Source: Candidatus Pacearchaeota archaeon (GTDB lineage Archaea; Nanobdellota; Nanobdellia; Pacearchaeales; GW2011-AR1). From it: a DNA stretch of 25,466 nt. A model generated the notes under the pieces. The model worked only from the letters and a program-made list of their open reading frames with translations, searched no databases and was not told the origin of the DNA. This document shows, in pieces, positions 15,956-21,577 of the stretch. The stretch covers positions 1 to 25,466 of the forward strand of contig WAQV01000059.1 in the NCBI GenBank assembly GCA_015520065.1. The letters run 5' to 3'. A program made the position numbers and the translations under genes. How positions within the stretch are numbered: the first letter of the stretch is position 1; every line of letters starts with the position of its first letter.

Positions 15956-16073
15956 CTTTTTAACAAATTCATAGATAATTCTGATTTTTATCGGATTGTC
16001 TTTATTTTATAAAACTCTTTGTATCTTTTTGGTTTGCTTATCTATAAGCTATCAACATGCACAAGTTGTACAA

Positions 16074-16146
16074 CGCCCCGTCCGGGATTCGAACCCGGGT
16101 CACAGCCTCGAAAGGGCTGTATTCTTGGCCTCTGAACTAACGGGGC
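16074..16146 (-). tRNA. tRNA-Glu(TTC), 73 nt
   Basis: Acceptor GCCCCGT/ACGGGGC, anticodon stem CAGCC/GGCTG with loop CTTTCGA, T loop GGTTCGAATCC. Confidence 0.96.
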
Positions 16147-16182
16147 TTTTGATTTCCTTGCCAACCTAAGTTAAGCAAGGAG

Positions 16183-16309
16183 TGAGCCTGCCCGGATTTG
16201 AACCGGGGACCTCTGGCTCTCTTAGATTTGTCCAAGAGATATGCAACCGTTCAGAAAACGGTCACACTCTTATAAGACCAGCGCTCTAACCAGGCTGAGC
16301 TACAGGCTC
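16183..16309 (-). tRNA. tRNA-Ile(TAT) with a 52-nt canonical 37/38 intron (16219-16270)
   Basis: Acceptor GAGCCTG/CAGGCTC, A73, D stem GCTC/GAGC, anticodon TAT at 16274-16272. BHB: central helix C32-A35 (CTTA) with intron TAAG, 3-nt bulges TA|A and AG|A. Mature length 75 nt. Confidence 0.93.
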
Positions 16310-16429
16310 TTGTTAAATGAGTAATAATGTTAATATTTAAAGTTTATTACAAGCACGGATTTGTGTAAGGTAAATAAAAAAACAGAACAATTTAGAACTT
16401 TCAAAAACATTTATAAAAATCTTCAGCTA

Positions 16430-16722: not shown

Positions 16723-17112
16723 TCAACCAACTCTAAAAAACAGCCAGTTTTTGTTTTTTCCAGAATCTTTTTCAGATGAAGAAAATTTCGCCTTTAACAA
16801 TACATACTTTCCATTAAGTTTTTTTCCATTCAGATGAAAAACTATTTTTTCTGGCTTTCTGCTTTCCAAAACAAAATCTCCTTTATCCCATATCTTCACC
16901 TTTCCGGCTCCGTAATGTCCTTCTGGAATAGTGCCTTCAAAACCCGCATACTCTAAAGAATGGTCTTCTGTCTGTATTGCAAGCCTTTTCAGATTTTTAA
17001 TTTTAGGAGGCTGTTTAGGCAAGGCCCATGATTTTAAAACGCCATCCATCTCCAGCCTTAAGTCCCAGTGCAACCTTCTTGCGTGATGCTCATGAATAAC
17101 AAAAACTGGCAT
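16723..17112 (-). CDS. Stand-alone LigD 3'-phosphoesterase (PE) domain protein
   Basis: 'FVIHEHHARRLHWDLRLEMDGVLKSWALPK...RLAIQTEDHSLEYAGFEGTIPEGHYGAGKVKIWDKG' is the LigD PE signature. Confidence 0.95.
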   Translation of the reverse strand: MPVFVIHEHHARRLHWDLRLEMDGVLKSWALPKQPPKIKNLKRLAIQTEDHSLEYAGFEGTIPEGHYGAGKVKIWDKGDFVLESRKPEKIVFHLNGKKLNGKYVLLKAKFSSSEKDSGKNKNWLFFRVG

Positions 17113-17945: not shown

Positions 17946-18677
17946 ATGCTTTACTTAATTGGATTAGGACTGAATCTTGACAGCATCTCAAAATCTGGTT
18001 TGGAAATTGTTAAAAGATGCAAGAAAATCTATCTTGAGAGCTATACAGTAGATTTTCCATACAGCGTTTCAGCACTGCAGGAAGTAATAGGAAAAAAAAT
18101 CATTCCTGTTGATAGGGATTTTGTAGAGTCATATAAAATTATAGATGAAGCAAAAAAGATGGATGTTGCACTACTGGTTTACGGAAACCCTTTAACAGCA
18201 ACTACCCATATATCCCTCTTGCATGAGGCAAAACTAAGCAAAATTAAATGCAAGGTAATTCACAACGCATCAATTCTGGATGCTGTTGCTGAAACCGGGT
18301 TGCAGTTATATAAATTCGGAAAAGTTGCGAGCATGCCTTCCTGGGATTACGAAAAGAAATTCACTCCTGACAGTTTTATGAAGATAATTCAGGAAAATTT
18401 GTCAATAAACGCTCACTCTTTGTTGTTGGTTGACATAGGACTTCCTTTCGATAGTGCTTTGCAGCAACTTGAAAAAGCTGCTGAAAACTACAATATAAAA
18501 CTAAAAAAGATAATTATTTGCCAGGCACTTGGAACAAAGCACAGCAAAATCATCTTTAAGGACATAAAAGAGCTGATAAAAGACAAAAAAAAGTTCAATA
18601 TTAAGAGTCCTTATTGCATAATCCTGCCGGCAAAACTTCATTTCTTTGAGAAGGAGATTTTGGAGAGTTTTGAATAA
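17946..18677 (+). CDS. dph5: Diphthine synthase (diphthamide biosynthesis methyltransferase)
   Basis: 'MLYLIGLGL', 'LESYT', 'VALLVYGNPLTATTH', 'IHNASI..AV..TGLQLYKFGK', 'HSLLLVDI'. Confidence 0.95.
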   Translation: MLYLIGLGLNLDSISKSGLEIVKRCKKIYLESYTVDFPYSVSALQEVIGKKIIPVDRDFVESYKIIDEAKKMDVALLVYGNPLTATTHISLLHEAKLSKIKCKVIHNASILDAVAETGLQLYKFGKVASMPSWDYEKKFTPDSFMKIIQENLSINAHSLLLVDIGLPFDSALQQLEKAAENYNIKLKKIIICQALGTKHSKIIFKDIKELIKDKKKFNIKSPYCIILPAKLHFFEKEILESFE

Positions 18678-18712
18678 ATAAACTTTAAAAGCAGTACATC
18701 TCTTAAAATACC

Positions 18713-21577
18713 ATGTATGATCCGAAAAAATCCGAGCCTGAGATGCAGAAATTCTGGAGAGAGAAACAGATTTATGAGAAACTGAAGAAAAAGAATTCTA
18801 ATGGAAAACCTTTTTACATGATGGATGGACCTCCTTATGCCAATGGAGATATCCATATGGGGCATGCTCTTAATAAAATTCTCAAAGATATTGCTATGCG
18901 TTCAAGAAGAATGCAAGGATATAATGTTTTTGACAGGCCGGGTTATGACACCCACGGAGTTCCAATAGAGTATCAGGTTGAAAAAGAGATAGGAAGCAAA
19001 AGCAAGAAAGACATTGAGAAATACGGAGTTAAAAGATTTATTGAGAAGTGCAAAGAGTTTGCTACTAAGTATATAGAGGCAATGAATCAGCAGTTCGAGG
19101 ACTTAGGAGTCTGGATGGATTTTAAAGACCCTTATCTGACTCTTGATAAGGAGTATATTGAAACAATTTGGGATACATTTAAGGAAGCTGACAAAAAAGG
19201 GCTTCTTTACTTAGGCAAATATCCTGTTCATATCTGCCCGCGATGCGAAACAGCTGTTGCATATAACGAGATAGAGTATGAAAAACAAGACGACACATCA
19301 ATTTATGTTAAATTTCCTCTAAAGGACGAGAAAAACAAGTTTTTCGTAATATGGACAACAACTCCATGGACTCTGCCAGGAAATACTGGAATAATGGTAA
19401 ATCCTGATATTGAGTATGTAGAAGCAGAATTAAGCAATGGCGAGATATGGATAATTGCAAAAGACAGGATAGAGGAGTTAATGAGTGCAACAGAGAGAGG
19501 TTACACAATTAAGAAGATTTTGAAAGGAAAAGAGCTGGAAGGAATTGAGTACATAAACCCTCTGGCAGACAAATTAAAACTTACTGTTAAAAATGGTTAC
19601 AGAGTTGTATTGTCTTCAAGATATGTAAATGTTGAGGATGGAAGCGGATTAGTTCATTGCGCTCCTGGCCATGGAAAAGAGGATTACGAAGTCGGGAAAG
19701 AGTATGGATTGGATATGCCTTCTCCTGTGGCTGTGAACGGAATTCTTACTGAGGAAGCAGGGAAATACTCTGGGAAAAAAGCAAGAGTTGTTGATGCTGA
19801 AATAATCGAGGATCTTGAAAAAGAAGGTTTTCTTGTTTACAAACATAAATACACTCATGACTATCCTTTGTGCTGGAGATGCAAATCAGCACTTTTGATG
19901 GTGTCTATGCCCCAATGGTTTTTTAGCATTAAAGATATTCACCAGAAACTTCTTGACTCAAATGAAAAGGTTAACTGGATACCTAAATATATGAAGCTGA
20001 GAATGAAAGCATGGCTTGAAGGTATCTCAGACTGGCCTATTTCAAGAAATAGATATTGGGGAACTCCTCTCCCAATATGGGTATGTGAAGAGTGTTCTGA
20101 AAAGGAAGTAATAGGTTCTATTAAAGAGTTGGAAGAAAAATCAGGGGTTAAAGTAACAGAAGTTCATAAGCCGGAAATAGATGACATTTTCCTTAAATGC
20201 CAGTGCGGAGGGAAAATGAAAAGAGTTTCAGAAGTGTTGGATGTCTGGTTTGATTCAGGAGTTGCAAGCTGGGCTGCACTGCACTCAGAGGAGGAAATGA
20301 ACAAATTTTGGCCTGCAGATTTAAATATTGAGGGAAAAGACCAGATAAGAGGATGGTGGAATTCTCAATTGATTCTTTCAGAGATAAAGTTTGGGAAGCT
20401 TCCATACAAAAACATTATGGTGCATGGAATGGTCTTGGATTTAGGTAAGAAGAAAATGTCAAAATCTAAAGGAAATGTTATCTCCCCTCAAGATGTCATT
20501 AACTCTTATAGCAGGGATTTAATGAGGTATTACTTTGCAAAAACATCTAAAGGGGAAGATTTCGCTTTTGATGAGAATGAGTTTAAAAGAATCAAGCAAA
20601 TATTTATTGTTTTGGAAAATGTAATAAACTATGAAAGAACTCTCAATCCTTCAGAAAAAGGAGAACTCAAAACAGAAGATAAATGGATTCTCTCTAGATT
20701 CAACTCTGTGCTTGAGAACATAATCAACTCTTATAATAATTTTAACTTTCAGAAAGTGCTTGAGAATTATGAGAGGTTTTTGTTAGAAGACTTTAGTAGA
20801 ACTTACATAAAGATAATAAGGGAAAGAGAGAATGAAGAGATAATTAGAAATATAATTAACAGCATAAATTTCGGACTTATTGCACTAATATCTCCTGTAT
20901 GCCCTTTTATAACAGAATATATCTATCAAAACTCCTTTAGGAATTCCTCAGAGACCAGCAATAAAGGAAATAAAGAAGAGTCAATTCATCTGTGCAGTAT
21001 GCCTGTTTCTGATAAATCAGTGATTGACAAAGAACTTGAATCTAAGTTTGCAGTTATCCTAAAAGCTATCGAGGAAGGTCTTTCAGAAAGAGATAAACAA
21101 AAAATAGGTTTAAGATGGCCTTTGAGAAAAGCTATAGTTTATGTTGGAAAGGACATTGCAAATGTTAAAGAATTAGAGGAATTTGGATATATCATTAAAT
21201 CCCAGTTGAATGTAAAGGAAGTTGAATTTAAAACAGCAGAGAATGCAAATGAAATTTCTGTTGAGCTTGACACTGAGCTTACTTCTGAACTTGAAGCAGA
21301 AGGGTTTGCAAGGGAACTTTCAAGAAAAGTGCAGGCATTCAGAAAGAAACTTTCTCTGCAGAAGCATCAGAAGATAAAGCTTTTGGTTTTTACAGATGAC
21401 TCAGAGCTTAGAGATATGCTGGAAACTCACAAAGACTTCATACAAGAAAGAACAAATGCTGCTTCATTTGAGATAGTCGATAACGAGTCAAAAATAGACG
21501 AAGAAAACTTTAAAAATAAAGAAAGCTTTAAGATAAAAGATAAAAGAGGTATAATAGCGATAAATAACTACCAATAA
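18713..21577 (+). CDS. ileS: Isoleucine--tRNA ligase (archaeal/type 2)
   Basis: 'DGPPYANGDIHMGH' (HIGH), 'WTTTPWTLP' and 'GSGLVHCAPGHGKED' editing motifs, 'WPISRNRYWGTPLP', 'KMSKSKGN'; type-2 C-terminus without Zn finger. Confidence 0.98.
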   Translation: MYDPKKSEPEMQKFWREKQIYEKLKKKNSNGKPFYMMDGPPYANGDIHMGHALNKILKDIAMRSRRMQGYNVFDRPGYDTHGVPIEYQVEKEIGSKSKKDIEKYGVKRFIEKCKEFATKYIEAMNQQFEDLGVWMDFKDPYLTLDKEYIETIWDTFKEADKKGLLYLGKYPVHICPRCETAVAYNEIEYEKQDDTSIYVKFPLKDEKNKFFVIWTTTPWTLPGNTGIMVNPDIEYVEAELSNGEIWIIAKDRIEELMSATERGYTIKKILKGKELEGIEYINPLADKLKLTVKNGYRVVLSSRYVNVEDGSGLVHCAPGHGKEDYEVGKEYGLDMPSPVAVNGILTEEAGKYSGKKARVVDAEIIEDLEKEGFLVYKHKYTHDYPLCWRCKSALLMVSMPQWFFSIKDIHQKLLDSNEKVNWIPKYMKLRMKAWLEGISDWPISRNRYWGTPLPIWVCEECSEKEVIGSIKELEEKSGVKVTEVHKPEIDDIFLKCQCGGKMKRVSEVLDVWFDSGVASWAALHSEEEMNKFWPADLNIEGKDQIRGWWNSQLILSEIKFGKLPYKNIMVHGMVLDLGKKKMSKSKGNVISPQDVINSYSRDLMRYYFAKTSKGEDFAFDENEFKRIKQIFIVLENVINYERTLNPSEKGELKTEDKWILSRFNSVLENIINSYNNFNFQKVLENYERFLLEDFSRTYIKIIRERENEEIIRNIINSINFGLIALISPVCPFITEYIYQNSFRNSSETSNKGNKEESIHLCSMPVSDKSVIDKELESKFAVILKAIEEGLSERDKQKIGLRWPLRKAIVYVGKDIANVKELEEFGYIIKSQLNVKEVEFKTAENANEISVELDTELTSELEAEGFARELSRKVQAFRKKLSLQKHQKIKLLVFTDDSELRDMLETHKDFIQERTNAASFEIVDNESKIDEENFKNKESFKIKDKRGIIAINNYQ

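Follow-up and report, generated by a model that had tools for sequence, protein, structure and literature searches.

The stretch of DNA analysed here (the window; 25,466 nt, contig WAQV01000059.1 of the Candidatus Pacearchaeota archaeon assembly GCA_015520065.1) carries on its minus strand a complete pre-tRNA gene for an isoleucine tRNA with a UAU anticodon, interrupted by an intron and followed by a tRNA-Glu gene (Table 1). The Rfam tRNA model RF00005 aligned to the minus strand from 16309 to 16183 over its full length (model positions 1-71; 58.4 bits, E = 1.9e-10), with a 53-nt insertion within the anticodon loop. The gene was missed by ARAGORN at its default settings (introns off), and ARAGORN -i called it as tRNA-Ile(tat), with an intron between positions 37 and 38 and a cloverleaf of 7/4/5/5-bp stems that includes one U31.G39 wobble and A73. 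Dissection of the sequence found that all 17 scored stem pairs form, and the spliced RNA, with a predicted length of 75 nt and an exon junction at which ...GGTCTTATA is joined to AGCCAGAGG..., folds as a cloverleaf; CCA is not encoded. The tRNA, its TAT anticodon with U34 at 16274 and the 37/38 intron position given in the preliminary description were thus borne out by Rfam, ARAGORN -i and dissection, and the A73, C4-G69 and U31.G39 that it listed can all be read in the sequence. The TATA-box-like element upstream is likely to be an archaeal promoter for this gene, judging from its resemblance to the TATA consensus and its spacing.

Table 1 Features of the tRNA-Ile(UAU) locus and the tRNA-Ile(GAU) gene of the same genome (G000).
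Feature	Position	Strand	Details and source
pre-tRNA-Ile(UAU) gene, complete	16183..16309	-	127 nt; Rfam RF00005, ARAGORN -i, Logan contigs
5' exon, tRNA positions 1-37	16271..16309	-	39 nt; sequence dissection
Anticodon TAT	16272..16274	-	U34 = 16274; dissection, no alternative letter in three DNA runs
Intron at canonical 37/38 site	16219..16270	-	52 nt; ARAGORN -i and dissection
3' exon, tRNA positions 38-73	16183..16218	-	Sequence dissection
TATA-box-like TTTAAATA	16334..16341	-	24 nt upstream of the first tRNA nucleotide; read from sequence
tRNA-Glu(UUC)	16074..16146	-	36 nt downstream of tRNA-Ile(UAU); ARAGORN and Rfam
ORF with LigD 3'-phosphoesterase domain	16723-17112	-	Stand-alone, 129 aa; PF13298, E 3.4e-39
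dph5 (diphthine synthase) and ileS pair	17946-21577	+	Syntenic with relative G003
IleRS (ileS)	18713..21577	+	954 aa; NCBIfam TIGR00392, 853 bits (cut-off 621)
tRNA-Ile(GAU)	G000:C14:4605-4700	-	17-nt intron at 37/38

The tRNA-Glu(UUC) gene also lies inside the 3-kb locus of tRNA-Ile(UAU) in 18 of 25 relatives. Across loci L033-L055 there is no fixed distance or relative order between the Ile and Glu genes, and the Glu gene of some relatives has an intron as well. The isoleucyl-tRNA synthetase gene ileS lies 2.4 kb from the tRNA gene and encodes an enzyme of the archaeal/eukaryote type (Pfam domains tRNA-synt_1, Anticodon_1 and DUF5915), which would be expected to charge tRNA-Ile(UAU). A functional linkage between the two genes was considered and rejected for this family, as the relative G003 keeps the dph5-ileS synteny with its tRNA gene about 400 kb away. 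The 129-aa ORF with the LigD domain likewise has an orthologue in G003.

By its sequence, the body of the UAU tRNA is of the isoleucine type. Once spliced, it is identical to the tRNA-Ile(GAU) of the same genome at 70 of 75 positions, and the five differences comprise nucleotide 34 and compensatory pair swaps at 30-40 and 50-64. The 5' exons of the two tRNAs differ at two positions only, and the two share their acceptor stem, D arm, variable loop and A73; the UAU/GAU pair of the relative G003 shows the same relation. Compared with the elongator tRNA-Met of the same genome, only 58 positions are identical.

The codon read by this anticodon is heavily used. ATA was described previously as abundant in the window, and the count of 261 among the 6616 codons of the window ORFs agrees with this; genome-wide, in ORFs of >=200 aa, ATA occurs at 41.7 per 1000 codons, makes up 45% of isoleucine codons and is twice as frequent as ATG. 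When 195 pairs of orthologues from this genome and G003 were compared codon by codon, 70% of the ATA codons of this genome aligned with an isoleucine codon and 1.6% with ATG; the respective figures were 66% and 2.0% for its ATT codons and 11% and 58% for its ATG codons. The alignment profile of ATA is the same as that of ATT and ATC (with ATT, ATA and ATC as partners). As judged from these substitution patterns, AUA behaves as an isoleucine codon, and its reassignment to methionine is ruled out because ATA aligns so predominantly with isoleucine codons and so rarely with ATG.

An intron at 37/38 was present in all 25 complete orthologues dissected, with lengths of 30-99 nt and 3' ends of the form ..CUAAG/CUAGG plus two further nucleotides, and was also present in two class-level examples. 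In this gene, C32-A35 can pair with the intron UAAG to form the 4-bp central helix of a bulge-helix-bulge (BHB) motif, flanked at the splice sites by bulges of 3 nt each (UA/A and AG/A, with the slash at the splice site). The same arrangement was found in 25 of 25 relatives, with UAAG or UAGG close to the intron 3' end as the partner of C32-A35 and a 3-nt bulge on either side. Beside the 5' splice site, the outer helix has only 2 contiguous bp here (1-5 bp in relatives), short of the strict hBHBh' form, and the BHB-constrained fold lies 10.8 kcal/mol above the minimum free energy fold, the largest gap among the relatives. The 'clean BHB' of the preliminary description is therefore too generous: its central helix and two bulges stand, but the short outer helix and the energy gap show the motif to be relaxed.

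The intron holds a 12-bp hairpin starting from 16267. A second segment, UCUCUUGGA (from 16239), is able to pair with the intron 3' end UCUAAGAGA; the unconstrained fold prefers this hairpin, which sequesters the UAAG strand of the central helix and accounts for the energy gap. A segment resembling UCUCUUGGA is retained in several family members, and locus L033 shows an apparent compensatory change. Nearly every orthologue intron has a possible stem-loop a few nucleotides past the 5' splice site, formed by very different sequences. A box C/D guide within the intron was rejected as a candidate, as reading of the 25 introns revealed no RUGAUGA-like box in any of them. The genome encodes a splicing endonuclease catalytic domain (PF01974, 87.7 bits, G000:C4), which is partial at a contig end.

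Taken together, the gene very probably specifies the isoleucine tRNA with which a DPANN archaeon without TiaS reads AUA. It would be transcribed from its own TATA-box promoter, and the 52-nt intron would be removed at the bulge-helix-bulge by the archaeal splicing endonuclease. The 75-nt product, sharing its body with tRNA-Ile(GAU), would then be charged by the archaeal/eukaryote-type IleRS, and its UAU anticodon would pair directly with AUA, the codon that accounts for 45% of isoleucine codons. On this reading, the UAU tRNA would replace the tRNA-Ile2(CAU) and agmatidine system of most archaea, and the replacement would be an ancestral trait of the whole phylum.

Decoding AUA with a genomically encoded UAU anticodon raises the matter of how AUA is distinguished from AUG at the wobble position. 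Elp3 makes 5-substituted U34; this genome encodes an Elp3 (555 bits), as do 36 of the 50 high-quality genomes searched in the order. Our best guess, weakly held, is that U34 in this tRNA may carry an Elp3-dependent 5-substitution, which would favour A over G as its partner. However, at least five genomes without Elp3 match the UAU tRNA pattern (G051, G059, G063, G009 and G039), so Elp3 cannot be the universal answer. The search for U34-modifying enzymes suggested at the outset thus gave a divided result, with Elp3 found here and in most of the order but missing from these relatives.

The fallback is a serious if tentative possibility, namely that U34 may be left unmodified and that AUG would be rejected by the ribosome together with the tRNA body, and not through wobble chemistry. 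This is the situation in Mycoplasma mobile, where U34 of tRNA-Ile2(UAU) is unmodified (Taniguchi et al. 2013, PMC3575796) and where, as in a Bacillus subtilis mutant, no significant misreading of AUG was seen (PMC3575796, PMC3895270). Like the archaeon studied here, M. mobile has lost its C34-modifying enzyme, encodes a genomic UAU anticodon instead and has a reduced, AT-rich genome; it differs in being a bacterium, in having no intron in the gene and in possessing a bacterial-type IleRS with a specific arginine. The absence of detectable Elp3 from several relatives with the UAU tRNA and the very reduced set of modification enzymes in the lineage are both consistent with an unmodified U34. Against it, M. 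mobile relies on Arg865 of its IleRS, for which there is no established equivalent in the archaeal type (PMC3575796), the bacterial and archaeal/eukaryote types differing in their C-terminal domains (PMC3575796). The presence of Elp3 in this genome also argues for a modified U34.

In yeast pre-tRNA-Ile(UAU), Pus1 converts U34 and U36 to pseudouridine in an intron-dependent manner. A eukaryote-like route of this kind, in which the intron would be needed for a pseudouridine synthase to act at U34 and U36 and the resulting pseudoU-A-pseudoU anticodon would discriminate AUA from AUG, has several features in its favour: every UAU gene examined bears the 37/38 intron, the intron pairs with U33-A35 as in the eukaryotic pre-tRNA, compensatory changes preserve the intron hairpin, and introns also occur in the UAU tRNAs of ARMAN and Korarchaeum (PMC3239211, PMC6000648). 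The eukaryotic minor tRNA-Ile(UAU), with its intron-dependent pseudoU34 and pseudoU36 (cited in PMC3575796), thus resembles the tRNA described here in its anticodon, in an obligatory 37/38 intron that pairs with the anticodon and in a synthetase of the eukaryote/archaeal type, a type that accepts UAU-type anticodons, as shown in eukaryotes (PMC3575796). The required enzymes, however, were not found: the TruA/Pus1 domain PF01416 was absent from this genome and from all 50 high-quality genomes of the order (13 of 14 controls were positive), and TruD/Pus7 was not found in this genome. Moreover, tRNA-Ile(GAU) and several other tRNAs of this genome bear introns, again in contrast to the eukaryotic case, so the intron is not special to the UAU tRNA, and inspection of the UAU gene's intron by eye revealed neither a box C/D-like nor an H/ACA-like motif. 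Pseudouridylation of the anticodon is therefore an improbable solution here.

In most archaea AUA is read by tRNA-Ile2(CAU), whose anticodon is modified to agmatidine by TiaS. The TiaS_FLD domain (PF08489) had no match in this genome (80% complete), in any of 151 genomes of the order (68 of high quality) or in any of 301 genomes of the phylum (300 of high quality). The catalytic TiaS_TCKD domain (PF22641) gave nothing significant in this genome (12.4 bits against a cut-off of 27) or in any of 51 genomes of the order (50 of high quality), and all four archaeal control genomes matched in each of these searches. No TilS was found in this genome either, the sole TilS-like match being a 285-aa PP-loop protein that fell below the TilS cut-off and scored best as the TtuA/NcsA type. 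The assembly contains two CAU tRNAs, one initiator-like (A1-U72, AGCGGGG...) and one elongator-like, a count that applies to an 80% complete assembly and to assignments made with no isotype-specific model.

At 80% completeness, the apparent lack of TiaS and of a third, Ile2-type CAU tRNA in this genome leans in part on evidence from related genomes. Across the order, there is at most one elongator-type CAU tRNA with the D arm of the genome's own elongator per genome, and the 511-kb contig of G003 carries one CAU tRNA among its 36-38 tRNAs. A TiaS and tRNA-Ile2(CAU) pair hidden in the unassembled 20%, coexisting with the UAU tRNA so that nothing has been replaced, would fit the incompleteness of the assembly and the frequent loss of tRNAs and small genes from MAGs, but is highly improbable given these tRNA counts and the uniform absence of both TiaS domains from relatives with positive controls. 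The suggestion made from the sequence that tiaS has been lost and AUA is read in another way is accordingly supported, with the qualification that the whole phylum, and not this genome alone, shares the loss.

With neither agmatidine nor lysidine, without Pus1-type pseudouridine and, in several relatives, without Elp3, the order may separate AUA (about 4% of codons) from AUG without any known wobble chemistry, although we consider this rather unlikely. Two further observations can be cited for the same reading. The first is that the universal t6A37 pathway looks incomplete in most of the order, since Kae1/TsaD was found in 51 of 51 genomes (this genome's copy at G000:C88:229-1053) but just 8 of 50 high-quality genomes gave a Sua5/TsaC (PF01300) match, and this genome gave none; alternatively, the Sua5 of the order may be too divergent for detection. 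The second is the elongator tRNA-Met(CAU) of this genome (G000:C43:3190-3263, plus strand), which has G37 in a CUCAUGA loop. G37 occurs in all 23 matches from its own family (f1), and A37 (CUCAUAA) in the three matches from other families of the order; to our knowledge, A37 is near-universal in elongator tRNA-Met. If true, this reading would imply decoding of a minimal kind, resting on either the ribosome or the body of the tRNA, which would resemble the M. mobile solution but be independent of it.

The sequence on which these arguments depend appears sound. The locus was recovered from three DNA runs on different samples of one hydrothermal-vent metagenome study, and independently built Logan contigs spanning 16055-16308, 15998-16308 and 16061-16308 show zero differences, with no alternative letter reported at 16274. 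The identity of the three runs' contigs over 16061-16308 rules out an assembly error as the source of the T at position 34, an artefact that the preliminary description had named as grounds for rejecting its claim. An error of assembly or sequencing at T34, or the decay of a pseudogene copied from tRNA-Ile(GAU) or tRNA-Ile2(CAU), might be entertained because the claim hangs on one nucleotide of a fragmented MAG (102 contigs), but this is effectively refuted by the three-run agreement, by the same TAT anticodon loop in more than 100 related genomes and by intact stems in which the differences from tRNA-Ile(GAU) are compensatory.

In runs X1 and X3, contigs over 16213-16281 agree with the tRNA exons, yet where the intron would stand they have other, shorter inserts, which most likely represent the tRNAs of co-occurring relatives with other intron variants. 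These joints were rejected as spliced RNA, as other letters stand between the two sides and the runs with the locus are all of DNA. The host assembly (698 kb in 102 contigs, 80% complete, 0.1% contamination, 34.6% GC) has window genes of archaeal type (TFB, dph5, TrmB and IleRS), and the genomes of all relatives are tiny, which fits a Pacearchaeota-type DPANN host.

The preliminary description regarded tRNA-Ile(UAU) as rare, but this does not hold within the lineage. A strict pattern combining the Ile-type D arm (GCTCAG..TNAGAGC) with a CUUAUA loop matched 26 of 41 close relatives, all 11 high-quality genomes among them, and 41 of 301 genomes phylum-wide. Its failure outside the order is due only to variation in the D arm (GCTTAG..., GGCTAGAGC), variants that were exposed by two very loose patterns whose matches were otherwise mostly noise. 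A revised Ile-type pattern with the UAU anticodon matched 102 of 151 genomes of the phylum, compared with 3 matches of a reversed control pattern. On this distribution, tRNA-Ile(UAU) is the rule in this lineage and no rarity. Such genes are easily overlooked: ARAGORN run with introns labels many of the orthologues Ser(tga) or Stop because the placement of the intron is ambiguous (these were re-dissected with a custom script), and it labels this genome's own tRNA-Ile(GAU) Ser(gga) or '???(gata)'. For annotators, this means that tRNA finders without intron support will miss or mislabel these genes.

The closest described counterparts are those of ARMAN-2, -4 and -5, which possess a tRNA-Ile(UAU) with a 37/38 intron and lack TiaS and tRNA-Ile(CAU) (Fujishima et al. 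2011, PMC3239211). These share with the present case the UAU anticodon, the canonical intron position, a BHB-type motif, the absence of TiaS and a tiny DPANN genome. They differ in phylum (Micrarchaeota/Parvarchaeota, whereas the host here is Pacearchaeota-type, in the phylum of Nanoarchaeum), in intron length (25 nt versus 52 nt here) and in having the strict hBHBh' form rather than a 2-bp outer helix. The ARMAN-2 pre-tRNA-Ile(UAU) was moreover cleaved in vitro (PMC3239211), whereas splicing is here a prediction from the sequence.

A tRNA-Leu(AAG) with A34, which is unusual for archaea, occurs in this genome (G000:C70:3367-3450, plus strand) and in G003 (G003:C1:298085-298168), and the ARAGORN lists contain no tRNA-Leu(GAG). 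The co-occurrence of this tRNA with tRNA-Ile(UAU) is a further likeness to ARMAN-4 and -5, in which tRNA-Leu(AAG) has been reported (PMC3239211).

Nanoarchaeum equitans and Korarchaeum cryptofilum also encode tRNA-Ile(UAU) ('tRNA-Ile3') and have no tRNA-Ile2(CAU) (PMC6000648, PMC8450103, PMC3895270). As in those species, a genomic UAU anticodon in tRNA-Ile would here take the place of tRNA-Ile2(CAU), and as in Korarchaeum the gene is a near copy of tRNA-Ile(GAU) and has an intron; the difference is one of extent, the trait being order-wide here and present in most of a phylum. Surveys of cultured archaea treat tRNA-Ile(UAU) as a two-species oddity (PMC8450103, PMC6000648, PMC3895270), and a full-text literature search turned up no paper in which the term DPANN is connected with TiaS or agmatidine, suggesting that the phylum-wide extent may not have been stated in those words. 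That extent nonetheless follows naturally from the published cases, and the gene itself is a further case of the kind known from Nanoarchaeum, Korarchaeum and ARMAN, ordinary for its lineage.

The survey is of more use than the single gene. In Pacearchaeota-type archaea, as in Nanoarchaeum and ARMAN, AUA would be read by an intron-bearing tRNA-Ile(UAU) in cells without TiaS, and this tRNA is the default across a large uncultured phylum.
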